Below, in pieces: positions 40,656-55,063 of a stretch of 64,000 bases of DNA. Position 1 is the first letter of the stretch. Every line of letters begins with the position of its first letter. Under the pieces are notes generated by a model. It did no database searches, was not told the DNA's origin, and saw nothing but the letters and a program-made list of their open reading frames with translations. The stretch lies in assembly GCA_044868695.1 (NCBI GenBank), contig JBIOWP010000107.1:4966-68965 (forward strand), written 5' to 3'. Source of the stretch: a bacterium (lineage in GTDB: Bacteria > Sysuimicrobiota > Sysuimicrobiia > Sysuimicrobiales > Kaftiobacteriaceae). Position numbers and translations under genes: made by a program.

Positions 40656-40740
40656 GTCCCGTCGTGTACCGCAGGCAGGAATTGCGTTGCTCGGCGCGAA
40701 TCGCGCGAGAACCCAGCGAAGCTCGTGGAGGCGACAGACC

Positions 40741-42099
40741 ATGGAGAGCGTGAAGTACCTGCTTGACGAATCGCAGATTCCCAAATCCTGGTACAACATC
40801 TGCTCGGATCTGCCCGTGCCGCTTCCGCCGGTGCTGCATCCGGGCACCAAGCAGCCGGTGGGCCCGGACGATCTCGCGCCGCTGTTCCCGATGGACCTGA
40901 TCCTGCAGGAGGTCAGCACTGAGCGCGAGATCCCCATCCCCGAGCCGGTGCGCGAGGTGTACAAGTTGTGGCGGCCCACGCCGCTGCATCGCGCACGGCG
41001 GCTCGAACGGGCGCTCGACACCCCGGCGCACATCTACTACAAGTACGAAGGCACCAGCCCGGCCGGTAGTCATAAGCCGAACACCGCGGTCGCGCAGGCG
41101 TTCTACAACAAACAGGCGGGCGTGCGGCGGCTGAGCACGGAGACCGGAGCCGGACAGTGGGGCAGCGCGCTGGCGCTGGCCTGCCGGATGTTCGGGCTCG
41201 AGTGCACCGTGTACATGGTCAAGGTGAGCTACGACCAGAAGCCGTACCGCAAGACCATGATGCAGACCTGGGGCGCTGAAGTCATCCCCAGCCCGAGTTC
41301 CCGTACCAACGCCGGCCGCGCCATCGCGGCCAAAGACCCGCGCTCGCCGGGCAGCCTGGGCATCGCCATCAGCGAGGCCGTCGAGGACGCCGCGACGCAC
41401 GATGACACGAAGTACTCTCTGGGCAGTGTCCTCAACCACGTCCTCCTACACCAGACCGTCATCGGGGTGGAAGCCCGCAAGCAGATGGAGATGGCCGGCG
41501 AGTATCCCGATGTTGTCATCGGGTGCATCGGGGGCGGGAGCAACATGTCGGGGCTCACGTTCCCGTTCCTGGCCGACAAGTTCAAGGGCAAGAAAGTGCG
41601 GATCGTGGCGGTGGAGCCCGAGGCGTGCCCGTCGCTGACCCGCGGCCGGTACCTCTATGACTTTGGGGACACTGCGGCAACCACGCCACTCATCAAGATG
41701 TACACGCTCGGCCACAGTTTTGTGCCGCCGGCGATCCACGCGGGTGGGCTGCGCTACCACGGCGATGCGCCCCTCGCCTGCCTGCTGTATCATCACAAGT
41801 ACATCGAGGCCGCCGCCTACTCGCAGCGGTCCGTCTTTGAAGCCGCGGTGCAGTTCGCGCAGACCGAGGGGATCATTCCGGCGCCGGAATCCGCGCACGC
41901 GATCCGCAAGGCCGTCGATGAGGCGCTCCAGTGCAAGCGCGACGGCACGGCCCGGGTGATCCTGTTCAATCTCAGCGGACACGGGCACTTTGACCTGAAG
42001 GCCTACGAGGATTTCCTGGCCGGCAGGCTGGAGGACTTCGTCTACCCGCAGCAGCAGGTGGAGCAGGCGATGAAGGAACTGGCGGCGATTCAGCCCTAG
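40741..42099 (+). CDS. trpB2: TrpB2-type tryptophan synthase beta-like PLP enzyme (stand-alone)
   Basis: [29 protein letters not shown] (PLP Lys), [21 protein letters not shown]; no trpA adjacent. Confidence 0.93.
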
Positions 42100-44298: not shown

Positions 44299-44353
44299 GC
44301 CTGATGGTCCCGTCACTAGGCACTAGTTGCCCGTCACTGCTAGAATCGTTGTA

Positions 44354-45064
44354 ATGCCTCCCACAGGCTGGCTTCTCGACCTCCGCGACGGCCCCACGCC
44401 GTATCCGGACGCCTGGGCGCTGCAGAAGGCGCTGGTGACCGCGCGCCAGCTCGGACAAATCACCGACGGCCTTGTGCTCCTGGAGCACGAACCCGTGTTT
44501 ACCGCTGGCCGCTCCGCGCGGGCCGAACACCTCCTGTTCCCCAGGGAGGCGCTGGCCGCGCGGGGTTTCGGGGTGTACGACATCGAACGCGGCGGCAGCG
44601 TCACCTACCACGGGCCGGGCCAGCTGGTCGGGTATCCCATCCTCGATCTGCGCGCCTACAGCGATGACGTCGTACAGTACGTGCGGTCATTGGAAGACAC
44701 GGTCATCCGGACCCTCGCGGGCTTCGGCATTGCCGCGCAGCGTGTCCGAGGGTACCCGGGAGTCTGGGTGGGCGATGAGAAGATCGGCGCGGTGGGCGTG
44801 GCCGTCAAGCGCAAGGTGACGATGCACGGGTTTGCGCTGAATGTAGATCCGGACCTGCAGCACTTTGCCTACATCAATCCCTGCGGCCTCGGGCGGCCGG
44901 TGACGTCGCTGGCGCGTGTCCTCGGGCGCCCGGTCACGGTGGACGAGGTGCGGGAGGTCTACACGTGCCGGTTCACCGACGTCTTCGGTCTGTCCCTCGC
45001 CCCCATTTCCCGCGGCGAGCTCGAGCGGTCCCTGGCAATCTCCGCTGTTCCCGTGCGCGCGTGA
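44354..45064 (+). CDS. lipB: Lipoyl(octanoyl) transferase
   Basis: LLEHEPVFTAGR, ERGGSVTYHGPGQLVGYPI, GVW, KIGAVG, MHGFALN, INPCG; TAGAAT 7 nt before the ATG. Confidence 0.95.
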   Translation: MPPTGWLLDLRDGPTPYPDAWALQKALVTARQLGQITDGLVLLEHEPVFTAGRSARAEHLLFPREALAARGFGVYDIERGGSVTYHGPGQLVGYPILDLRAYSDDVVQYVRSLEDTVIRTLAGFGIAAQRVRGYPGVWVGDEKIGAVGVAVKRKVTMHGFALNVDPDLQHFAYINPCGLGRPVTSLARVLGRPVTVDEVREVYTCRFTDVFGLSLAPISRGELERSLAISAVPVRA

Positions 45065-45066
45065 CC

Positions 45067-46212
45067 ATGAGCCGCCGGCGGTTCGAGACCCGCGCGATCC
45101 ATGAGGGGCAGCCGCCGGATCCCGCGACCGGCGCGGTCATGACGCCGATCTATCAGACCGCGACATACGCGCAGTCCGAGCCCGCGGTCCACAAGGGATA
45201 CGACTACAGCCGCACCGCGAATCCGACCCGCACCGCGCTGGAAACATGCCTGGCGTCGCTGGAAGAGGGGGCGCACGGGCTCGCGTTTGCCTCGGGGATG
45301 GCGGCGATCACCACAGCGTCATATCTGCTCAACCCCGGCGACCGGGTGCTGGCCCCGGACGACGTGTACGGCGGAACCTACCGGTTGTTCGTCCGCGTCC
45401 TCCAGCGCTACGGCATCGCGCCGTCGTTCGTGGACATGACCGACCTGACGCGGGTCGAGGCGGCGCTGGGCACCCACCCGCGCCTGGTGCTGGTCGAGAC
45501 GCCGACCAACCCGTACCTCAAGATCCTCGACATTGCGCGCATCGCCGAGCTCGCGCATACCCACGACGCGCTCGTGCTCGTGGACAATACGTTTGCGTCT
45601 CCCTATTTCCAGCGGCCGCTGACCCTGAGTGCGGATATCGTCGTCCACTCGACAACCAAGTACCTGGGCGGGCACAGCGACGTGATCGGCGGCGCCGCGG
45701 TGACCAACAGCAGGGAGATCGCTGAAACGCTGCGGTTCCACCAGAATGCCGCCGGCGCGGTGCCGGGACCGTTCGACTCCTGGCTCGTCCTGCGCGGGAT
45801 CAAGACGCTGGCGGTGCGGATGGAACGCCACGCCGCCAACGCGATGCAGGTGGCGCAGTTCCTAAACGGCCATCCCGCCGTGGCCCGGACGTTCTACCCC
45901 GGTCTCCCCGGCCACCCCGGCTACGACCTCGCCCGGCGGCAGATGACGGGATTCGGCGGGATGGTGTCGTTCGTTCTGAAGGGGGGAGGCCGCGCGGCCA
46001 GGGCCGTGGCTTCCTCGACGCGGGTCTTCCTCCTGGCGGAGAGCCTGGGCGGCGTGGAATCGCTTCTCGACCATCCGGCCAGCATGACGCACGCCTCGCT
46101 CGCCGGCTCCCCGATGCAGGTTGACGAAGGGCTGATCCGCCTCTCGGTGGGGATTGAGCACATCGACGACCTCATTGACGATTTGAAGCAGGCGCTCGAC
46201 AACGCGAGATGA
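45067..46212 (+). CDS. Cystathionine gamma-lyase/synthase family PLP enzyme
   Basis: TRAIHEG, PIYQTATY, YSRTANPT, FASGMAA, ETPTNP, HSTTKYLGGHSD, AESLGGVES, IRLSVGIE. Confidence 0.93.
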   Translation: MSRRRFETRAIHEGQPPDPATGAVMTPIYQTATYAQSEPAVHKGYDYSRTANPTRTALETCLASLEEGAHGLAFASGMAAITTASYLLNPGDRVLAPDDVYGGTYRLFVRVLQRYGIAPSFVDMTDLTRVEAALGTHPRLVLVETPTNPYLKILDIARIAELAHTHDALVLVDNTFASPYFQRPLTLSADIVVHSTTKYLGGHSDVIGGAAVTNSREIAETLRFHQNAAGAVPGPFDSWLVLRGIKTLAVRMERHAANAMQVAQFLNGHPAVARTFYPGLPGHPGYDLARRQMTGFGGMVSFVLKGGGRAARAVASSTRVFLLAESLGGVESLLDHPASMTHASLAGSPMQVDEGLIRLSVGIEHIDDLIDDLKQALDNAR

Positions 46213-46484
46213 CGACCGTCTACGTCCCAACTCCGCTCCGCCGCACGACGGGCGGCCAGGGCAAGGTCCAGCTTGCCGGCCGCACCGTGCGGGAGTTGCT
46301 TGACGCGCTGGAGCGCCGCCATCCCGGCATCCGGCAGCAGGTGTTCGATGAGCGCGGCGAGGTACGCAGCTTCATCAATGTCTTCGTCAACGGCACCGAG
46401 ATCCGGCAACTGCAGGGGCTGGCGACGCCCGTGAAAGAGACGGACGAGGTGTCGATCATCCCCGCGATGGCGGGCGGGTTGTGA
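46209..46484 (+). CDS. Ubiquitin-like sulfur carrier (MoaD/ThiS/CysO family) ending GG-L
   Basis: VYVPTPLRR.TGG, INVFVNG..IR.LQGL.T, IIPAMAGG followed by one extra Leu before TGA. Confidence 0.9.
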   Translation: MTTVYVPTPLRRTTGGQGKVQLAGRTVRELLDALERRHPGIRQQVFDERGEVRSFINVFVNGTEIRQLQGLATPVKETDEVSIIPAMAGGL

Positions 46485-47917
46485 AGCGCACGGCGGGCAA
46501 GGTCAGGCCACGGCCCCGCCGCGCGGCGCCAACCGCCGCCAGGGACGAAATCTTCGACAGTGTCCTCGATGTGGTCGGCAAGACCTCGCTCGTGCGCCTG
46601 CACAAGGTCACCCGCGGCCTGCGCGCCGATGTCGTGGCGAAGCTCGAGTACCTCAATCCCGGCGGTTCGGTCAAAGACCGGATCGGCCCGACGATCCTCG
46701 ATGATGCGGAGCAGCGCGGGCTACTGCGGCCCGGCGGAACGATCGTGGAAGCCACCTCCGGGAATACCGGCGTCGGCCTGGCCATCGCCGCGGCGGTCCG
46801 CGGGTACCGGACCATCTTCGTCATGCCGGACAAGATGTCGGAGGAGAAGATCCGGCTGCTGCGCGCGTTCGGCGCCCGCGTCGTCATTACGCCGACCGCG
46901 GTGGCGCCCGACGATCCACGAAGCTACTACAGCGTGAGCCGGCGCATCGCCGAGGAGACCCCGAACAGCTTCTACGCCAACCAGTACGCCAATCCGGCGA
47001 ACCCGCAGGCGCACTATCGCACGACCGGTCCGGAGATCTGGCGCCAGACCGGCGGCCGGCTCGACCTCTTCATTGCCACGATGGGGACCGGCGGGACAAT
47101 TTCCGGCGCCGGCAAGTTTCTCAAGGAGCGGCGCTCGGCGCTGCGCGTCATCGGGGTCGATCCGCTGGGGTCGGTCTTTTACGAATACTTCAAGACCGGA
47201 AAGCTCCCCGAGCCGCGGACATATAAGGTGGAGGGGATCGGTGAAGACTTTCTCCCCGAGACGATGGATTTCTCCGTCGTGGACGAGGTCGTGCAGATCT
47301 CCGACCGCGAGGCGTTCATGATGACGCGGCGGCTGGTGCGCGAAGAAGGACTGTTCTGCGGCGGCAGCAGCGGCGCGGCGGTGGCGGGCGCGATCAAGTA
47401 TCTGCGCACTCTGCCCGACGGCGGCGCGGGCCTGCGGGCGGTCGTGGTGCTCCCCGATTCCGGATCGCGCTACCTCTCCAAGATCTTCTCCGACGACTGG
47501 ATGCGGGAGCATGGATTCTTGGAGATCGAACTAGGCACCGTCGGGGAGCTGGTGCAGACCAAGTCCATCCCGCTGGTGTCGGCCAGCCGCACCGATGCGG
47601 TCAGCGACGTCGTCGCCAAGATGAAGCAGTACGACGTGTCGCAGCTGCCGGTGCTGGAAGACGAGCGCCTGGTCGGTATGATCAGCGAAGTGGACCTGCT
47701 CACGCACCTGCTGGATGGCTCTCACCGCCCCTCGGATCCAATCCAGCCCATCATTGATCCCGCGCCCCCGGTGGTGGCCCCCGACAGCCCGATCGACGTC
47801 CTGGCCGACGTCTTCCTCTCCGCCAACGCGGCGGTCGTTGTGGATCACGGCGCGGTGGTGGGGATCGTCACCAAGATCGACGTCATCGACCACCTGGCCA
47901 AACGCCTGGGCCGCTGA
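46481..47917 (+). CDS. cbs: Cystathionine beta-synthase (PLP domain plus C-terminal CBS pair)
   Basis: KLEYLNPGGSVKDR, EATSGNTG, KVEGIGED, PDSGSRYLSKIFSDDW, tandem CBS domains. Confidence 0.9.
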   Translation: MKRTAGKVRPRPRRAAPTAARDEIFDSVLDVVGKTSLVRLHKVTRGLRADVVAKLEYLNPGGSVKDRIGPTILDDAEQRGLLRPGGTIVEATSGNTGVGLAIAAAVRGYRTIFVMPDKMSEEKIRLLRAFGARVVITPTAVAPDDPRSYYSVSRRIAEETPNSFYANQYANPANPQAHYRTTGPEIWRQTGGRLDLFIATMGTGGTISGAGKFLKERRSALRVIGVDPLGSVFYEYFKTGKLPEPRTYKVEGIGEDFLPETMDFSVVDEVVQISDREAFMMTRRLVREEGLFCGGSSGAAVAGAIKYLRTLPDGGAGLRAVVVLPDSGSRYLSKIFSDDWMREHGFLEIELGTVGELVQTKSIPLVSASRTDAVSDVVAKMKQYDVSQLPVLEDERLVGMISEVDLLTHLLDGSHRPSDPIQPIIDPAPPVVAPDSPIDVLADVFLSANAAVVVDHGAVVGIVTKIDVIDHLAKRLGR

Positions 47918-47922
47918 CCGGG

Positions 47923-48777
47923 ATGAGAGACAACACGCGCGCCGGCGGGGCGCTGCGGCTTTCAACCGGGCAGTCGTTGCCCGATTTGCGGATCGTCCCC
48001 CGCGCCGAGGTCCATTTGCACGAGGAGACCGATCCGGCCCGCGTGCAGCGGCTGGTCGCGCGCATGCGAGCGGACGGCATCCTGCGCAATCCGCCGATTG
48101 CCGCGCCGCTGCCGGAAGGCGGGTACGTCGTTCTCGACGGAGCCAACCGCAGCACTGCCCTGATGGCGTTTGAGGCGCCGCTGCTGCTCGTCCAGGTTGT
48201 CGACTATCATGATCCCGCGGTCAGGCTCGATGTCTGGCATCACCTGCTGACCGAGCCGGTGGACCTCGGGGCCCTGCTGCGGTCCAAGGGACTGATCTTG
48301 AAGGACATGAGTGTGTCTGAAGCGGCGCAGGCACTGGCCCAGCGCGCGATCGCATGCTACCTGCTGGGTCCTGCCGGAGCCCGGTCAGTGGCCGCCGCAC
48401 CGGCCCAGCCGTCCGCGGCGGTTCTCTCGGCGGTTGTGGACGCCTACAAGGCGACAACCCGCATTTACCGCGTGATGGACACAGACTTGGATACGCTCGC
48501 CCGCGCGTATGGGTCCGTCTCGGCGGTGGTGGTCTTCCCGACCTTCACCAAACGCGACATTCTTGAGATTGCGCGGTCGCCAGTCAAGCTGCCCGCCGGC
48601 ATTACGCGGCATCTCATCCCCGGGCGCGCGCTGCGCGTGAATCTGCCGCTCGAGGTCCTGACCTCGCCGGGCGACGCCGAGCAAAAGAACCGCTGGCTGG
48701 TCGAGGAGATTCACCAGCGGCTGCTCGAGAACCGCGTCCGGTACTACCCGGAAGACTCCTTCCTGTTTGATGAGTGA
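47923..48777 (+). CDS. ParB/Srx-fold protein resembling free L-serine kinases SbnI/SerK
   Basis: LHEE (catalytic Glu position), DGILRNP, VLDGANR, WHH, LPAGITRHLIPGRAL.VNLPL..L and C-terminal VRYY.E, a pattern I recall from S. aureus SbnI. Confidence 0.72.
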   Translation: MRDNTRAGGALRLSTGQSLPDLRIVPRAEVHLHEETDPARVQRLVARMRADGILRNPPIAAPLPEGGYVVLDGANRSTALMAFEAPLLLVQVVDYHDPAVRLDVWHHLLTEPVDLGALLRSKGLILKDMSVSEAAQALAQRAIACYLLGPAGARSVAAAPAQPSAAVLSAVVDAYKATTRIYRVMDTDLDTLARAYGSVSAVVVFPTFTKRDILEIARSPVKLPAGITRHLIPGRALRVNLPLEVLTSPGDAEQKNRWLVEEIHQRLLENRVRYYPEDSFLFDE

Positions 48778-49666
48778 GCTGCTCAACGCCATCGGCAATA
48801 CGCCGCTGCTGCGCCTAACCCGCGTCACGCGGGATCTGCCGCTGGCGGTTGAAGTGCACGTCAAAGCCGAGTGGTTCAACCCCGGGGGATCGGTGAAGGA
48901 CCGTCCGGTGCGCCGGATCATCCTCGACGCGGAGCGCGACGGCCGCCTGTCGCGCGACCGGACCATCCTCGATTCGTCATCCGGAAACGCCGGCATCGCC
49001 TACGCCATGATCGGAGCGGCCCGGGGCTATCGCGTGCGTCTGGTCGTGCCAGGCAACGTCAGCGAGGAACGCAAGCACATCCTGCGCGCGTACGGCGCGG
49101 AGGTGGAATACTCCGATCCGCTAGAAGGGTCGGACGGCGCGATCGTCGTCGCCCGCCGCCTGCACGAGGAGGGCCGCGGCCAGTTCTTCTACGGCGACCA
49201 GTACAGCAATCCCAGCAATCCCCGCGCGCACTACGAGACGACCGGTCCTGAGGTGTTCGCGCAAACCGAGTCGCGCATCACCCATTTTGTGGCCGCGCTG
49301 GGCACCAGCGGGACGATCGTCGGGGCCGGGCGCCGGCTGCGGGAACTGCAGCCGGGCGTGCAGATTGTGGCGGTCGAGCCGGACACGGCCCTGCACGGCA
49401 TCGAGGGATTGAAGCACATGGCCAGCGCGATCGTTCCGGGAATCTATGACCGCTCCGTCCACCACCGCACGATTCCGATGAGCACGGAGGCCGCCTACGA
49501 GATGGCCAGGCGCCTGGCGCGCGAGGAGGGGCTCCTGGTCGGCCAGTCATCCGGCGCCGCGGTGGCGGGCGCTCTGCAGGTGGCCCGTGAGCTTGAGGAG
49601 GGTGTAATCGTCGCGGTCTGCCCTGACGGCGGCGACCGCTACTTGTCGACCGCCCTCTGGAGATAA
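48770..49666 (+). CDS. cysM: PLP-dependent cysteine synthase family enzyme (CysM / O-phosphoserine sulfhydrylase-like)
   Basis: IGNTPL, KAEWFNPGGSVKDR, DSSSGNAG, GTSGT, EGLKHM, CPDGGDRYLS; directly upstream of mec. Confidence 0.82.
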   Translation: MSELLNAIGNTPLLRLTRVTRDLPLAVEVHVKAEWFNPGGSVKDRPVRRIILDAERDGRLSRDRTILDSSSGNAGIAYAMIGAARGYRVRLVVPGNVSEERKHILRAYGAEVEYSDPLEGSDGAIVVARRLHEEGRGQFFYGDQYSNPSNPRAHYETTGPEVFAQTESRITHFVAALGTSGTIVGAGRRLRELQPGVQIVAVEPDTALHGIEGLKHMASAIVPGIYDRSVHHRTIPMSTEAAYEMARRLAREEGLLVGQSSGAAVAGALQVARELEEGVIVAVCPDGGDRYLSTALWR

Positions 49667-49702: not shown

Positions 49703-50101
49703 GTGCTGGAACTGAGTCGGGACCAGGCTGCGGCGCTTGTTGCGCACGCCAACGAGGAGTTTCCCAACGAGTGCTGCGGTCTGCTGGCCGGGCGCAACGG
49801 CCGGGTGGAGCGGGTCTACCGGGGCACTAACGTCGATTACAGCCCCTATACGTACCTGATGGATCCCAAAGAGCAACTGGCCGCGTTCAAGGACATGGAA
49901 GCGGCCGGGCTGGACCTGGTAGGGATCTATCACTCGCACACCCACACGGCTGCGTACCCGTCCAAGACCGACGTGGCGAAGGCGTTCTACCCAGATGTAC
50001 TCTACATGATCGTATCGCTGGCGAGGCGGGAGACTCCAGAGATCCGGGCATTCCGGTTCTTGGACGCAGAGATCGTCGAAGAGGACGTGATCATTCGATG
50101 A
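49703..50101 (+). CDS. mec: Mec/JAB (MPN+) metallopeptidase
   Basis: PNECCGLL, IYHSHTH...YPS.TD JAMM motif (E...HxH.....S..D). Confidence 0.9.
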   Translation: MLELSRDQAAALVAHANEEFPNECCGLLAGRNGRVERVYRGTNVDYSPYTYLMDPKEQLAAFKDMEAAGLDLVGIYHSHTHTAAYPSKTDVAKAFYPDVLYMIVSLARRETPEIRAFRFLDAEIVEEDVIIR

Positions 50102-50523
50102 AAGTGTCCACCCGCGCGGAGTACGGACTGCGGGCGTTGATCGACCTCGCCAGCCACTACGGCGAAGGTCCGGTGCAGACGCATCAGATTGCGGCCCGCC
50201 AGGGGCTGCCGGAACCCTACCTCAATCAGCTGATGAGTTCCCTCCGGCGCGCAGGCCTGGTGGCCAGCAAGCGCGGACCCGCGGGCGGGCACGTGCTGGC
50301 GCGCGCCCCCGAGGCCATCACCCTCCGCGAGGCCTTCGACGTCCTGGAGGGGTCGACGGCGCCGTGGTGGTGCGTCGAGTCCGATGATCCCGACTGCGTG
50401 TATGCCCACGGCTGCGGGCTGCGGCCGGTGTGGCAGGCGATCAACCAGGCGGTGGAGCGCGTCCTGGGCGAGATGTCGCTCGCGGATATCTCACGCGTGA
50501 GGCAGCCTGCCGGACGCACCTGA
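50098..50523 (+). CDS. Rrf2 family transcriptional regulator (CymR/IscR-like)
   Basis: STRAEYGLRAL, YLNQLM..LRRAGLV.S.RG..GG..LA; Cys cluster WWCVESDDPDCVYAHGC. Confidence 0.92.
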   Translation: MKVSTRAEYGLRALIDLASHYGEGPVQTHQIAARQGLPEPYLNQLMSSLRRAGLVASKRGPAGGHVLARAPEAITLREAFDVLEGSTAPWWCVESDDPDCVYAHGCGLRPVWQAINQAVERVLGEMSLADISRVRQPAGRT

Positions 50524-50544
50524 CCTCGGCAGGCTGCACAGGGG

Positions 50545-50579
50545 CAGGCCAGGGGGCGCCCCTGGCCTGTGTTGTTTTT
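50545..50579 (+). terminator. Rho-independent terminator after rrf2
   Basis: 11-bp stem CAGGCCAGGGG/CCCCTGGCCTG, 3-nt loop, followed by TGTTGTTTTT. Confidence 0.75.
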
Positions 50580-50630: not shown

Positions 50631-51278
50631 GTGTCCGCGATGGGAGCAACGACCGTGGTGCCTCTTGAGGCCTCTGTGGCCGCCGACGACCGGGAACGGT
50701 TCCAGGCGCTGGCCGAACAGCACCTCGATGGGCTGTTCAGGGCCGCCCTGCGCCTGACCCGCAACCGCACGAAGGCGGAAGATCTCCTGCAGGAAACCTT
50801 CCTCCGCGCGTGGCGCTCGTTCCACACCTTCAAACCCGGCACCAACGCGCGCGCCTGGCTCTACAGAATTCTGATGAACGCGTACATCGATGGGTACCGG
50901 AAGACGACTCGCGAGCCGGAAGTCGTCGACCAGGAAGGCGTCGACGAGTTTTACCTGTACACGAAAGTGCAGGAGAGCGATGACTTCCGGCGCGCCGGGA
51001 ATCCCGAGGAAGTGCTCTTGTCCCGGCTCATGGACGCGGACGTCAAGGGTGCGCTCGACAACCTCCCCGACGCCTTCCGCGAGGTCGTCATCCTGGCCGA
51101 CATCGAAGGCTTCTCCTACAAGGAAATCGCCGAGATGCTCGCGATTCCCATCGGCACCGTGATGTCGAGGCTGCATCGTGGCCGGCGGCAGCTGCAGGTC
51201 AAACTCTGGGACTACGCCAAGCGGGCGCACTATGTCGGTGCCGACCAGGCGCCTCCGGCGGGGGGTGCCGGCCGATGA
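50631..51278 (+). CDS. ECF sigma factor, SigH/SigR-like
   Basis: AEDLLQETFLRAW..F..FKPGTNARAWLYRIL.N, GFSYKEIAEML.IPIGTVMSRLHRGR. Confidence 0.92.
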   Translation: MSAMGATTVVPLEASVAADDRERFQALAEQHLDGLFRAALRLTRNRTKAEDLLQETFLRAWRSFHTFKPGTNARAWLYRILMNAYIDGYRKTTREPEVVDQEGVDEFYLYTKVQESDDFRRAGNPEEVLLSRLMDADVKGALDNLPDAFREVVILADIEGFSYKEIAEMLAIPIGTVMSRLHRGRRQLQVKLWDYAKRAHYVGADQAPPAGGAGR

Positions 51279-51505
51279 CGGACATCGATTGCGAGCAGGT
51301 CCTCCAGATGGTCTGGCAGTTCCTCGACGGAGAGATCGACGAGGCCCACTATGTGGAAATCGAAGCCCACATCGCGGGCTGCTCGCAGTGCGGGCCGCGC
51401 TATGAGTTCCAGCGCCGGCTGATGGTGCTGATCGAGCGCAAGTGCAGCGAGGGCCCGGTGCCTGTGGAGCTCAAACGCCGGCTGTTTCGGCTGCTCGAGG
51501 AATAG
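51275..51505 (+). CDS. Zinc-binding anti-sigma factor (RshA/RsrA-like)
   Basis: N-terminal Cys (DCEQV), FLDGE, HIAGCSQC (HxxxCxxC ZAS motif); overlaps the sigma stop. Confidence 0.9.
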   Translation: MTDIDCEQVLQMVWQFLDGEIDEAHYVEIEAHIAGCSQCGPRYEFQRRLMVLIERKCSEGPVPVELKRRLFRLLEE

Positions 51506-51543: not shown

Positions 51544-52188
51544 ATGTCTGCCCTCCGCATCTTGCTCGTTGACGACCACCGCGTCGTGGCCGCCGCGCTG
51601 GTCCGCCTTCTGCACGACATCCCTGATGTCGAGGTCGTCGGCGTCGCCGCCACCGGTCCCGACGCGATCGCCCTCACCCGCACCCTCCACCCCTCCCTCG
51701 TGCTGATGGACATCGGGCTGCCCGGTATGGACGGGGTCGAAGCGACGTGGACCATCCGTCGCCAGTTCCCGGACGTGCAGGTCCTGATCCTCACAATGTT
51801 CGACCAGGACGCCTTCGCCATCGAGGCGCTGCGCGCCGGCGCCGCGGGCTACCTGCTGAAGACTGTGGCGCCGGAAGACCTGGCCCGCGCGATCCACACG
51901 GTCTGCAGCGGCGAGGGGCTGATCTACTCCGGCGGGCCCGCCGCCGGGCTGGGCCGGGCCGTTTCCGCCCGAGGCCGGCTGGGCGACCCCTACGCGCTGT
52001 CCCGCCGAGAACTGCAGATCCTGCAGCTCGTGGCGGCAGGATTTGATGCCGCGGATATTGCCCGCCAGCTGCTCCTCAGCCCCCACACCGTCCGGAACCA
52101 CCTGAAATCCACCTATCGGAAGCTGGGCGTCCGCGGCCGCGTCGAGGCGGCCGCCTATGCCGTCAGGCGGGGCCTCATTAAGACGTAA
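51544..52188 (+). CDS. NarL/LuxR family response regulator (no cognate kinase nearby)
   Basis: LLVDDH, LMDIGLPGMDG (phospho-Asp), LT, GYLLK, LSRRELQIL...TVRNHL...KLGV. Confidence 0.93.
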   Translation: MSALRILLVDDHRVVAAALVRLLHDIPDVEVVGVAATGPDAIALTRTLHPSLVLMDIGLPGMDGVEATWTIRRQFPDVQVLILTMFDQDAFAIEALRAGAAGYLLKTVAPEDLARAIHTVCSGEGLIYSGGPAAGLGRAVSARGRLGDPYALSRRELQILQLVAAGFDAADIARQLLLSPHTVRNHLKSTYRKLGVRGRVEAAAYAVRRGLIKT

Positions 52189-52204
52189 CTGCGGAACGTA
52201 GGAT

Positions 52205-52220
52205 TGACTCGACTGAGTCA
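52205..52220. promoter_or_regulatory. Palindrome TGACTC-N4-GAGTCA upstream of the LytTR gene
   Basis: Perfect 6-bp inverted arms overlapping TTGACT (-35-like). Confidence 0.45.
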
Positions 52221-52288
52221 TCCATGGCTAGCCCATTCGGGTCTGGGCGAGTTTCCGGTGGATGGTCCATTCTCTAAAACGAGGCATC

Positions 52289-52678
52289 ATGCCTGAGGAC
52301 CTGACGTTGATCACCGGAGTGGCCGAGCCGATCGCGGGTTCAGAGCCCGCCCTGGACCGCCTGCCGGTCCGCCTGGACGGGGAAATCCGCCTGCTGCCGG
52401 TAGGGAACGTCCTCTACTGCTACGCCGACGGCGACCGGACGATGCTGGTCACCCGGGCCGGGGAACTGCGCAGCCACCTCTGCCTGACCCGGCTGGCGGA
52501 GCGGCTGGAGCCCTTTCGCTTCTTCCGCTGCCACCGGGCGTACCTTGTAAACCTCGACCACGTCTGCAGCGTCATCCCCTGGACCCGCAACGCCTTCAGC
52601 CTAACCCTGGAAGGTGGGAAGGAGATTCCGCTCAGCAAACACCGCCTTCCGGCTCTGAAAGAACTTCTTGGCTGGTAG
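52289..52678 (+). CDS. Stand-alone LytTR DNA-binding domain protein
   Basis: RLPVR....I.LL....V.Y, L.RL.ERL.P.RFFRCHRAYLVNL, IPLSK; no receiver domain. Confidence 0.88.
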   Translation: MPEDLTLITGVAEPIAGSEPALDRLPVRLDGEIRLLPVGNVLYCYADGDRTMLVTRAGELRSHLCLTRLAERLEPFRFFRCHRAYLVNLDHVCSVIPWTRNAFSLTLEGGKEIPLSKHRLPALKELLGW

Positions 52679-52713: not shown

Positions 52714-53733
52714 TTAGTGTGCCTTGGCTGCCGCCTTTTCTTTGTGTTCCATAATCGAGGAGGAGTGGCCGGGGAAGGCTGAGGCGCTGGGGTTGATGTA
52801 GGTGACCGCGTTGTTCACGGCGGTGGCGGCCTCGCCGAACCCTGTCACGATGAGCTTGAGCTTGCCGGGGTAGGTCGCGATGTCGCCCGCCGCGTACACG
52901 CCGGGGACGTTGGCCTCCATCTTGCTGTTGACCACGATCGAGTCGTCCTTGATCTCCAGGCCCCACTCGCGGATCGGACCCAGGTTGCTGACCAGCCCCA
53001 GGAAGGCCAGGACGGCGTCGACGGGCAGCACCTCGTCGCCCTGGGTCTTGTTGTTGAAGACTACCGCCTCGCGGACCTGCGTGTCCCCGCGGATGCCGCG
53101 TAGCTCGTAAAACACCTTGACCTTGATCGGCGAGGCAAACAGCTTCTTCACGCTGTCCTCGTGGGCACGAAAGCCATCGCGGCGGTGAATCAAGGTGATC
53201 TGCTTCGCGTAGTCCACCAGGCCGAGCGCCCAGTCCAGCGCGGAGTCTCCGCCGCCGATGACCAGCAGCCGCTTCCCCCGGAAATCTTCCTTCTGGCGCA
53301 CAGCGAAGTACAATCCCTTGCCGATCCACTGATCGAGTTCCGCCCGCTTGAACGTCTTGGGGGTAAAGGCGCCGATCCCGGCGGTGATGAGGGTCACCCG
53401 TGTTCGATGCTCGCCCAGGTCCGTGCCCAGCCGGATCGTTCCGTCGGGCAGACGGTCGAGCGTGTGGACGTTCTCGTTCAACTGCACCGTTGGATGGTAG
53501 GTCATCCCCTGCTCGACCAGATTTGTCACGAGGTCCTTCCCCAGGATCTTGGGGAAGCCGGCGACGTCGTAGATGAACTTGTCGGGGTACAGAGCGGTTA
53601 CCTGACCGCCCAGGTCCGGCTGGCTGTCGATCAGCTTGGTGCGCAGCCCCCGAAACCCCGCATAATACGCGGCGAACAGCCCGGTCGGTCCGGCGCCGAT
53701 GATGGTGACGTCGTACAGATCTGCCTGTGTCAT
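52714..53733 (-). CDS. Ferredoxin/flavodoxin-NADP+ reductase (YumC/TrxB-like, no CxxC)
   Basis: IIGAGPTG, GGQVTALYPDKFIYDVAGFP, GGGDSALDWA, HRR..FRAH, YAAGDI..YPGK.KLI..GFGE; TGaTATAAT 7 nt before the ATG. Confidence 0.92.
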   Translation of the reverse strand: MTQADLYDVTIIGAGPTGLFAAYYAGFRGLRTKLIDSQPDLGGQVTALYPDKFIYDVAGFPKILGKDLVTNLVEQGMTYHPTVQLNENVHTLDRLPDGTIRLGTDLGEHRTRVTLITAGIGAFTPKTFKRAELDQWIGKGLYFAVRQKEDFRGKRLLVIGGGDSALDWALGLVDYAKQITLIHRRDGFRAHEDSVKKLFASPIKVKVFYELRGIRGDTQVREAVVFNNKTQGDEVLPVDAVLAFLGLVSNLGPIREWGLEIKDDSIVVNSKMEANVPGVYAAGDIATYPGKLKLIVTGFGEAATAVNNAVTYINPSASAFPGHSSSIMEHKEKAAAKAH

Positions 53734-53869
53734 CGCTCGGATTATATCATTCCCAAAATTCGGCCGGGCAGGGCGCCGGCGGTCTGGCGCGAAGATACCC
53801 CCGCTTCCGAGCGCATGGTAAAATCGAATCTGTAGTCTACAAGTCAAGAATCGTGCGCAGGAGGCAGGC

Positions 53870-55063
53870 ATGACTCTGACAGCCCGCCCGGGCCCGCTTC
53901 TGGCCAAGGATCAGATCGAGCGGTACTCCCGCCAGACGATCCTTGAAGAGATCGGCGTCGCGGGGCAGCGCAAACTCTTGGACAGCAGGGTGCTGATCGT
54001 CGGCGCCGGAGGACTGGGCAGCCCGTCGGCCATCTACCTCGCCGCGGCCGGGATCGGCACGCTGGGTATCGTGGACGGCGACCGCGTCGATCTCTCCAAC
54101 CTCCACCGCCAGGTGATGCACTTCACGCACGACATCGGCAGGCCGAAGACCCAGTCCGCGCGGCGGACGCTGGAGGACATCAATCCCGACGTCACCGTCG
54201 TCCCGCACCAGACGGTCCTGACCAGCGAGAACGCGATGGACATCATTTCAGACTATGACCTCGTCATCAACGGCAGCGACAACTTCCCGACGCGCTATCT
54301 GGTCAACGACGCGACCGTCATGTTGCGCAAGCCGCTCGTCGACGCCAGCATTCTGAAGTGGGAGGGGCAGGCCACCGTCTTCCTGCCGGGCCACGGCTGC
54401 TACCGCTGCCTGTTTCCCACGCCGCCGCCTCCGGGGACGGTGCCCAGCTGCGCCGAGGGCGGAATCGTCGGCGCGCTCGCGGGCTTCATGGGAACGCTGC
54501 AGGCGGTGGAGGCCATCAAGATCCTCGTCGGCAAGGGTGAGACGCTGGCCAACCGCCTGTTCATCTACGACGCGCTGATCGGCGAGATCCGCACGCTGCG
54601 CTGGAACCGGAATCCGGATTGCCCGGTGTGCGGCGACCACCCGACGGTCACCCAGCTCATCGATTACGAGGCCTTCTGCGGCGTGCCCGGTCGCGAGCCG
54701 TCGCATGCGCCCGCGGTCGCCGTGGCGCGCACGCCGGAGGTGTCCGTGGCCGAGGCGAAGGCGATGCTGGACCGCGGCGAGGCCCAACTGGTTGATGTGC
54801 GGGAAGTCTGGGAGTGGGTGACCGCCCGCATTCCCGGCGCCGCGCTGATTCCGATGGGCGAGCTGGCCCAGCGCATCTCGGAAATCCCCAAGGATCGCAC
54901 CGTGATCATTCACTGCGCCACCGGGCAGCGCAGCGCTACTGTGACGGATGCGCTGCGCGACGCCGGATATGCCCAGACGTTCAACCTGGCCGGTGGGATC
55001 GTGGCGTGGATGAACGAACAACTACCGGTGGAAGCGGGGCCGCCCGAGAAACACCAACCGTGA
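53870..55063 (+). CDS. moeB: MoeB/ThiF-family adenylyltransferase fused to rhodanese (MoeZ-like)
   Basis: RYSRQ, VGAGGLGSP, SNLHRQ, GSDNFPTRY, CYRC, PSCAEGG, CPVC, rhodanese DVRE..E and HCATGQRS. Confidence 0.93.
   Translation: MTLTARPGPLLAKDQIERYSRQTILEEIGVAGQRKLLDSRVLIVGAGGLGSPSAIYLAAAGIGTLGIVDGDRVDLSNLHRQVMHFTHDIGRPKTQSARRTLEDINPDVTVVPHQTVLTSENAMDIISDYDLVINGSDNFPTRYLVNDATVMLRKPLVDASILKWEGQATVFLPGHGCYRCLFPTPPPPGTVPSCAEGGIVGALAGFMGTLQAVEAIKILVGKGETLANRLFIYDALIGEIRTLRWNRNPDCPVCGDHPTVTQLIDYEAFCGVPGREPSHAPAVAVARTPEVSVAEAKAMLDRGEAQLVDVREVWEWVTARIPGAALIPMGELAQRISEIPKDRTVIIHCATGQRSATVTDALRDAGYAQTFNLAGGIVAWMNEQLPVEAGPPEKHQP

Follow-up and report, generated by a model that had tools for sequence, protein, structure and literature searches.

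The locus described here raises the question of why a gene resembling a serine kinase should lie inside a cysteine operon. It was found in a 64,000-nucleotide stretch (referred to here as the window) of contig JBIOWP010000107.1, from an uncultured soil bacterium of the phylum CSP1-3/Sysuimicrobiota. The gene, which is unannotated in its source and which we call SerKl, encodes a putative free L-serine kinase of 284 amino acids (47923-48777, + strand) with profile and structure matches to SbnI and SerK. To our knowledge, descriptions of free serine kinases are limited to SerK, from a few archaea, and SbnI, from a single siderophore pathway of staphylococci. Our answer to the question is that SerKl is probably a free L-serine kinase, from a large bacterial branch of the SbnI/SerK superfamily that has so far gone unannotated, and that it feeds O-phospho-L-serine (OPS) to the CysO-dependent CysM enzyme encoded next to it. 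A first-pass annotation of the same DNA had arrived at this interpretation from motifs in the open reading frame, all of which are present (VHLHEE, DGILRNPP, VLDGANR, LPAGITRHLIPGRAL and RVRYYPE). Its observation stands, as do the kinase-type homology, the coupling to CysM and the conserved neighborhood, but a lysine in CysM that it had taken as a marker of phosphate selectivity does not serve as one. The wider operon (with CBS, CGL, LipB and Rrf2 genes), a TrpB2 gene 5.8 kb upstream and the large bacterial family described below go beyond that first reading.

To what is SerKl related? A Pfam scan of the protein returned no family at an E value of 0.01 or lower. Among the NCBIfam models, those for SbnI (NF033589; E value of 5e-20, 71.9 bits) and for archaeal SerK (NF053625; E value of 1.7e-11, 43.8 bits) matched. 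The same two proteins were found in the PDB by a single-sequence phmmer search (SbnI, 1e-15; SerK, 2e-6) and by a profile built from 34 family sequences, which matched SbnI over the full length (residues 18 to 282; 2.7e-25) and SerK at 1.7e-11. Judged by these scores, the homology of SerKl to SbnI and SerK is far beyond chance. An AlphaFold2 model of SerKl, built on the 34-sequence family alignment, reached a mean pLDDT (predicted local distance difference test) of 91.2. When this model was searched against the PDB with Foldseek, the best nine matches were exclusively SbnI (5uje, 6nr6, 5ujd) or SerK (1vk1, which is the Pyrococcus furiosus orthologue, and 5x0b/e/g/j/k from Thermococcus kodakarensis), with E values of 2e-18 to 4e-15, target TM (template modeling) scores of 0.73 to 0.83 and 230 to 266 aligned columns spanning both domains. 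ParB, Noc and sulfiredoxin matched the N-terminal domain only, over ∼80 residues and with E values of ∼1e-3 to 1e-4. The closest structures are thus those of the two serine kinases and not those of nonkinase ParB/Srx proteins, in agreement with the kinase assignment made from motifs. SerKl is a two-domain protein, with an N-terminal ParB/Srx fold and a C-terminal domain that is specific to the SbnI/SerK superfamily.

The residues that carry this assignment are conserved. In the profile alignment, E34 of SerKl pairs with the HE motif of SbnI and with E30 of SerK, a residue that is mutated according to the titles of PDB entries ("E30A," "E30Q"). The D72-G-A-N-R76 motif aligns with DGVHR in SbnI and DGHHR in SerK, T228-R229-H230 aligns with TRF in SbnI and TRH in SerK, and R273-x-Y275-x-E277 aligns with RcYtE of SbnI. 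In SbnI, catalytic roles are reported for E20, the base in the HE motif, and for D58 (Verstraete 2018). Conservation was assessed in 150 representatives of clusters formed at 50% identity, which are 33 to 58% identical to SerKl. Among these, H33, E34, D72, G73, R76, W105, R183, G226, R235, R273, Y275 and E277 are conserved in at least 99% of sequences, R40, P57, Q91 and H107 fall with them in the range of 98 to 100%, and T228-R229 is also conserved. E34 is kept in 146 of the 146 aligned representatives and D72 in 148 of 149. Nearly all of the residues that are invariant in the SerKl family are common to SbnI.

The family is large. A scan covering 1.84 billion representatives, with clusters defined at 50% identity, retrieved 1,135 clusters at an E value of 1e-3 or lower, 664 at 1e-10 or lower and 201 at 1e-30 or lower. 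In public records, the homologues are named "hypothetical protein" or "ParB N-terminal domain-containing protein." The genome loci come from CSP1-3/Sysuimicrobiota (often carrying the labels Armatimonadota or ANGP1), Chloroflexota (Anaerolineae, Ardenticatenales), Latescibacterota, Ignavibacteriota/Kapaibacteria, Gemmatimonadota and Bacteroidota. Maximum-likelihood phylogeny sets the SerK proteins of archaea apart from all bacterial sequences with a support of 100/100 and places SbnI on a long branch within the bacterial family, beside a clade of proteins fused to SerA (90/85, a placement to be read with the caution due to long branches). The SerKl of the window belongs to a CSP1-3 clade in which each member is linked to CysM and CysO.

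What does the gene do in its operon? The SerKl reading frame runs into that of cysM, as the first-pass annotation had reported: its TGA stop codon (48775-48777) falls within the cysM start region (TTG ATG AGT GAG). Two starts are available there, namely the ATG at 48770, which gives an 8-nucleotide overlap (ATGAGTGA), and the TTG at 48767, which gives an overlap of 11 nucleotides. The N terminus of the product initiated at the ATG, MSELLNAIGNTPL..., matches that of Escherichia coli CysM. The overlapping stop and start codons bear out a translational coupling of SerKl with CysM, and the gene after cysM is indeed a Prok-JAB/Mec gene. Around this pair, genes that overlap or nearly abut throughout form an operon with the order lipB-CGL-cysO-CBS-SerKl-cysM-mec-rrf2. 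The features of the operon, and two further genes of the window that bear on it, are as follows (PLP, pyridoxal phosphate).

44317-44346: promoter-like site.

44327-45064, + strand: LipB octanoyltransferase, first gene of the operon (NF010925, 195.7 bits, cut-off 155); followed by a 2-nucleotide gap.

45067-46212, + strand: cystathionine gamma-lyase/gamma-synthase family protein (CGL, MetB-like; Cys_Met_Meta_PP, E value of 8e-147; NF005871, 569 bits, cut-off 513); ATGA overlap with cysO.

46209-46484, + strand: CysO-like sulfur carrier with a ThiS/MoaD fold (ThiS, E value of 3e-16; SAMP1 model, 71.7 bits); GTGA overlap with the CBS gene.

46481-47917, + strand: cystathionine beta-synthase-like PLP enzyme (CBS) with PALP and two CBS domains (TIGR01137, 508.1 bits, cut-off 510.25); 5-nucleotide gap to SerKl.

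47923-48777, + strand: SerKl.

48770-49666, + strand: CysM-like PLP beta-replacement enzyme of the cysteine synthase B type (PALP, E value of 4e-68; TIGR01138 cysM, 366 bits, cut-off 394); 36-nucleotide gap to mec.

49703-50101, + strand: Mec-like JAMM/MPN+ metalloprotease (Prok-JAB, E value of 3e-27; desampylase model, E value of 3e-29) with an E...HSH...S..D motif; ATGA overlap with rrf2.

50098-50523, + strand: Rrf2-family (CymR/IscR-like) regulator, last gene of the operon (Rrf2, E value of 4e-38; CymR model, E value of 1.6e-29, below its cut-off).

50544-50570 (or to 50580), + strand: intrinsic-terminator-like hairpin at the operon end (12-bp stem with 9 GC pairs, then a T run).

53870-55063, + strand: MoeZ-like E1 adenylyltransferase with a C-terminal rhodanese domain (ThiF, E value of 3.5e-81; Rhodanese, E value of 1e-20; MoeZ model, E value of 1.6e-127), ∼4 kb downstream.

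40687-42099, + strand: TrpB2, a TrpB-like PLP enzyme (NF009057, 752 bits, cut-off 366; tblastn match at 40741-42093), 5.8 kb upstream of SerKl.

The set for a carrier-protein cysteine pathway is therefore complete in the window, comprising a ThiS-fold carrier with Gly-Gly, a CysM-type PLP enzyme, a JAMM protease and a MoeZ-type E1 with rhodanese. The carrier of the window ends in ...AMAGG-L, one residue past the Gly-Gly, and related CysO proteins have tails of 1 to 20 residues after this motif or are fused in frame to CBS. Given that all CysO proteins of the CSP1-3 clade carry residues after the Gly-Gly, Mec must process CysO. The in-frame fusion of CysO to CBS was seen in ∼11 loci (L003, L009 to L012, L014, L016, L019, L021 and L029), for example as the single open reading frame ...IIPAMAGG-AEEIYDSV... 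at L009:6340-7986 (+). This arrangement raises the possibility that CysO is a partner of the CBS-like enzyme as well. The operon is probably under the control of its own Rrf2 regulator, and in an Rfam scan of the whole window no family, riboswitches and leaders included, attained its gathering score.

Is the association of SerKl with these genes more than a feature of one genome? Among 80 genome loci sampled for synteny, CysM directly follows SerKl in 36 loci of the CSP1-3 type, usually in the order LipB-CGL-CysO-CBS-SerKl-CysM-Mec-Rrf2 or in the shorter form LipB-CysO-SerKl-CysM-Mec-Rrf2. Nine Anaerolineae loci contain SerKl together with CysO, MoeZ and CysM, but in a different order, and in four further loci Mec, CysO or MoeZ lies near SerKl. 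At least one gene of the CysO pathway is thus found in 49 of the 80 loci, and the pathway set is conserved together in at least 45. The neighborhood, whose conservation the first-pass annotation had left to be checked, keeps SerKl with CysO, CysM, Mec and MoeZ across phyla, and since the association persists despite changes in gene order, we argue for a functional link. LipB is conserved as the first gene of the cysteine operon throughout the CSP1-3 loci. In two hot-spring Sysuimicrobiota, an insertion of ∼3.4 kb separates cysM and mec (L006:9783-13131 and L007:9777-13362). Some Anaerolineae (L073:671-1810 and L075:3296-4711) have a SerKl homologue after a suf operon for Fe-S cluster assembly (SufB/D, SufU, a Rieske protein and a DUF59-like protein) and not after a PLP enzyme.

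Gene fusions join SerKl to the same circle of proteins. We found a fusion of ThiS/CysO with SerKl (P0125), one of Prok-JAB/Mec with SerKl (P0156) and fusions of 3-phosphoglycerate dehydrogenase (SerA/PGDH) with SerKl, the last represented by fragments and by at least five full-length clusters. In the region L081:695-7317, the gene for the Mec fusion directly follows a three-gene set of Fer4_11, NrfD and molybdopterin oxidoreductase proteins; the resemblance of this set to polysulfide or thiosulfate reductases suggests that a sulfide source is involved.

A second partner surfaced when the neighbors of loci lacking CysO-pathway genes were clustered. In six Chloroflexota loci (L064, L065, L069, L070, L076 and L078), a TrpB-like PLP enzyme is encoded immediately upstream of SerKl (NF009057, 743 bits). 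We examined a further set of 80 metagenome loci, in which the LDGATR subfamily is overrepresented. Of these, 49 were informative in that they had at least 1.5 kb of upstream sequence, and in 30 of the 49 the gene immediately upstream, in the same orientation, is TrpB2 (L092-L159 range). Of the SerA-SerKl fusions, one is encoded after TrpB2 and another after a class-V aminotransferase. The position of TrpB2 5.8 kb upstream recurs in five related CSP1-3 loci. TrpB2 is reportedly an O-phosphoserine-dependent tryptophan synthase, as the title of a 2014 paper by Busch et al. has it (cited in PMC12790993). It is an OPS-using PLP beta-replacement enzyme whose gene immediately precedes that of a SerKl homologue in many lineages. 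In the window, TrpB2 lies outside the SerKl operon and is a possible second consumer of OPS. CysM, TrpB2, SerA and, in the case of SbnI, SbnA all touch phosphoserine, and this is the strongest argument that the SerKl family makes or handles OPS.

Together, these associations outline how the operon could work. SerKl would convert free L-serine to OPS, with ATP as the phosphate donor assumed by analogy with SbnI, and the coupled CysM would form the aminoacrylate from OPS. MoeZ would charge CysO to the CysO-thiocarboxylate, which would attack the aminoacrylate; after an S-to-N shift, Mec would hydrolyze CysO-Cys and free cysteine. Mec would also trim the residue or residues after the CysO Gly-Gly, and the CBS/CGL pair would provide an added transsulfuration route. 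The nearby TrpB2, and possibly the CBS-like enzyme, may draw on OPS from SerKl as well. We infer the OPS preference of CysM from genomic context. SerKl was also considered as the direct activator of CysO and rejected as the principal explanation, because MoeZ is present and because CysO is fused to CBS as well.

Several observations weigh against SerKl being a serine kinase for cysteine synthesis. Its scores are far under the curated cut-offs of the two models (72 versus 350 bits for SbnI, 44 versus 380 bits for archaeal SerK), and its identity to the SbnI and SerK structures is just 17 to 22%. Given this identity and scores below the cut-offs, the substrate is extrapolated. The His of the DG-x-H-R motif of SbnI and SerK is replaced by Asn (92 sequences) or Thr (51 sequences) in the SerKl family. 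About 30 of the 80 genome loci have no obvious OPS-using neighbor. The sequence was found in DNA soil-metagenome runs only, and no RNA runs carry it. A kinase also seems redundant if the organism has SerA and SerC, with which OPS would already be available. The remaining points concern CysM. The window enzyme finds its best PDB sequence matches in the CysM of Salmonella and E. coli, to which it is nearer (246 bits) than to Mycobacterium tuberculosis CysM (183 bits; 40% identity), and Campylobacter jejuni CysM uses O-acetylserine (OAS), not OPS (PMC9855970).

The substrate of CysM was also addressed through a single residue. The first-pass annotation had pointed to the basic residue in the GLKHM motif of the window enzyme as the counterpart of the phosphate-selecting Arg of mycobacterial CysM. 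Using a reference sequence identical to PDB entry 3dwg, we found that this Lys does align with Arg220 of M. tuberculosis CysM (ALRNM), and the column holds Lys in 43 and Arg in 1 of 44 SerKl-linked CysM proteins. Arg220 is reported to be a phosphate ligand in the mycobacterial enzyme (Agren 2008). However, the OAS-dependent CysM of E. coli and Salmonella (GIRRW) also carries Arg at this position, which is a further point against the assignment, so that the Lys is not diagnostic and was rejected as a marker of phosphate selection. It is compatible with anion binding and does not discriminate between substrates.

Could SerKl act on serine and OPS in another sense? The alternative that survives best is that the enzyme interconverts the two mainly in the other direction or for another purpose, either as a stand-in for SerB that supplies serine to the CBS-like enzyme or in serine catabolism via SerC and SerA; roles of this kind have been suggested for T. 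kodakarensis SerK and for the SbnI-like DUF1015 "SerBK" proteins. The many family members that are fused or adjacent to PGDH, and the one that follows a class-V aminotransferase, would fit such a role; a family with an SbnI-like fold can genetically replace SerB (GapMind 2026, PMC13759103), and SerK of T. kodakarensis serves serine catabolism too (PMC5120207). Nevertheless, we consider this alternative unlikely, since the reaction OPS + ADP → Ser + ATP is thermodynamically unfavorable (K of ∼4e-4, quoted in PMC13759103), the window gene is translationally coupled to CysM and not to SerA or SerC, a tblastn search of the window found no PGDH gene, and the links to CysO, Mec and TrpB2 all indicate OPS consumers. 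Among the open reading frames scanned, covering 31 to 64 kb of the window, there were no serine- or cysteine-activation genes.

It is also improbable that SerKl phosphorylates a different acceptor, such as homoserine, threonine or, in the manner of sulfiredoxin, a protein group (the CysO C-terminal carboxylate, a persulfide or a sulfinate). Such an activity has a precedent in the phosphorylation of protein sulfinate by the ParB/Srx fold of sulfiredoxin, and it would account for the CysO and Mec fusions and for the replaced His of DGxHR; in principle, the gamma-family enzyme of the operon (CGL, or cystathionine gamma-synthase) could use O-phosphohomoserine. Yet the serine kinase SbnI has the whole two-domain architecture too, together with almost every invariant residue, among them those of the TR(H/F) and RxYxE motifs in the C-terminal domain, and the E1 enzyme MoeZ is available for CysO activation. 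The CysO fusions look promiscuous, because some relatives have CysO joined to CBS, and they are tolerated because Mec cleaves after the Gly-Gly. The pairing with TrpB2 in 30 of the 49 informative metagenome loci, moreover, involves no carrier protein. That SerKl is primarily a regulator or nucleotide-binding switch rather than an enzyme, through the second role of SbnI (named [quoted passage not shown] by NCBI) or as a ParB-type CTP switch, is very improbable, given that the Pfam scan of SerKl shows neither ParB_N nor a helix-turn-helix or other DNA-binding domain, ParB structures cover only the N-terminal domain, a separate regulator, Rrf2, is encoded in the operon, the catalytic Glu and Asp are invariant, which speaks for catalysis, and the fusion partners are enzymes and not DNA-binding modules.

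How does a kinase that supplies OPS for cysteine synthesis compare with systems described earlier? SbnI of Staphylococcus aureus and Staphylococcus pseudintermedius (5UJE, 5UJD, 6NR6) is the best match of SerKl in both sequence and structure. The two share the full-length two-domain architecture including the C-terminal RxYxE, as well as the catalytic Glu, the Asp and TR(H/F), and each is encoded beside a PALP enzyme that uses OPS (SbnA, for SbnI) or probably does so (CysM, for SerKl). They differ in that the identity is ∼22%, SerKl lies outside a staphyloferrin B cluster, with CBS, CysM, Mec and CysO and no sbn genes as its neighbors, and has DGANR instead of DGVHR, the reported heme/DNA regulatory role of SbnI has left no sign in SerKl, and the client enzyme serves diaminopropionate synthesis for SbnI but would serve cysteine synthesis in the SerKl operon. 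SerK (TK0378 of T. kodakarensis and PF0380 of P. furiosus; 5X0B etc. and 1VK1) shares the fold (target TM score of up to 0.83), the catalytic Glu (E30, corresponding to E34) and the physiological logic: in T. kodakarensis, SerK opens a route from serine through OPS to cysteine (PMC5120207). In contrast to SerKl, with which it is 17% identical, SerK lacks the C-terminal RxYxE segment and several of the invariant residues of the SerKl family, is ADP dependent and is partnered by a sulfide-using cysteine synthase with no carrier protein.

All four components of the M. tuberculosis Mec-CysO-CysM system (Rv1334-1336) with MoeZ are present in the window. In mycobacteria, however, OPS comes from SerC and the cluster has no kinase, whereas the cluster of the window has an inserted, coupled gene for the putative kinase; in addition, the window CysO has an extra residue after the Gly-Gly, its operon includes CBS, CGL, LipB and Rrf2 genes, and its CysM is nearer to enteric CysM in sequence. 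Another uncharacterized bacterial family, the DUF1015 "SerBK" proteins, also has an SbnI-like structure, has been proposed to contain serine kinases and is linked to serA and serC (PMC13759103). It is a separate family, for which the genetic evidence concerns the replacement of SerB in serine synthesis, and that report contains no link to CysO or CysM. Makino et al. 2016 did not find clear bacterial homologues of SerK (PMC5120207), and a 2025 survey of the ParB fold and GapMind 2026 (PMC13759103) give SerK and SbnI as isolated examples only.

Beyond the operon, the interval up to moeZ (50631-51505, 51544-52678, 52714-53907 [-]) encodes an ECF sigma factor accompanied by an anti-sigma factor of the zf-HC2 type (ZAS, RsrA-like), a LuxR-type response regulator and a LytTR protein. 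A thioredoxin-reductase-like gene in this interval is divergent from moeZ. The interval looks like a thiol-redox regulatory neighborhood.

The first-pass annotation had stated that it knew of no description of this gene combination, and our full-text literature searches likewise found no serine kinase in a CysO/CysM/Mec cluster and no description of a link between TrpB2 and a serine kinase or of such a kinase beside TrpB2. Given that each component has a known relative, the advance lies in wiring and annotation and involves no new chemistry. As a broader and more tentative proposal, to which we give somewhat less than even weight, the bacterial SerKl family could be a general OPS supply module (∼1,100 clusters, almost entirely unannotated, with SbnI as a divergent offshoot) that was recruited repeatedly beside CysO-dependent CysM, TrpB2, SbnA and perhaps a CBS-like enzyme. 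If this were the case, whole phyla, such as CSP1-3/Sysuimicrobiota and many Chloroflexota, would activate serine by phosphorylation instead of acetylation, CysE would not be needed for their cysteine synthesis, and the puzzling OPS dependence of TrpB2 would gain a physiological explanation. If the reading of SerKl as a serine kinase holds, the mycobacterial type of carrier-protein cysteine pathway would gain a dedicated source of phosphoserine, and TrpB2 enzymes would gain a source of the phosphoserine implied by their biochemistry. Pathway-gap tools that score cysteine synthesis via CysE or SerC would change for uncultured phyla, and a function could be assigned to roughly a thousand proteins from Sysuimicrobiota, Chloroflexota, Latescibacterota, Ignavibacteriota and other phyla that are now named "hypothetical" or "ParB N-terminal domain."

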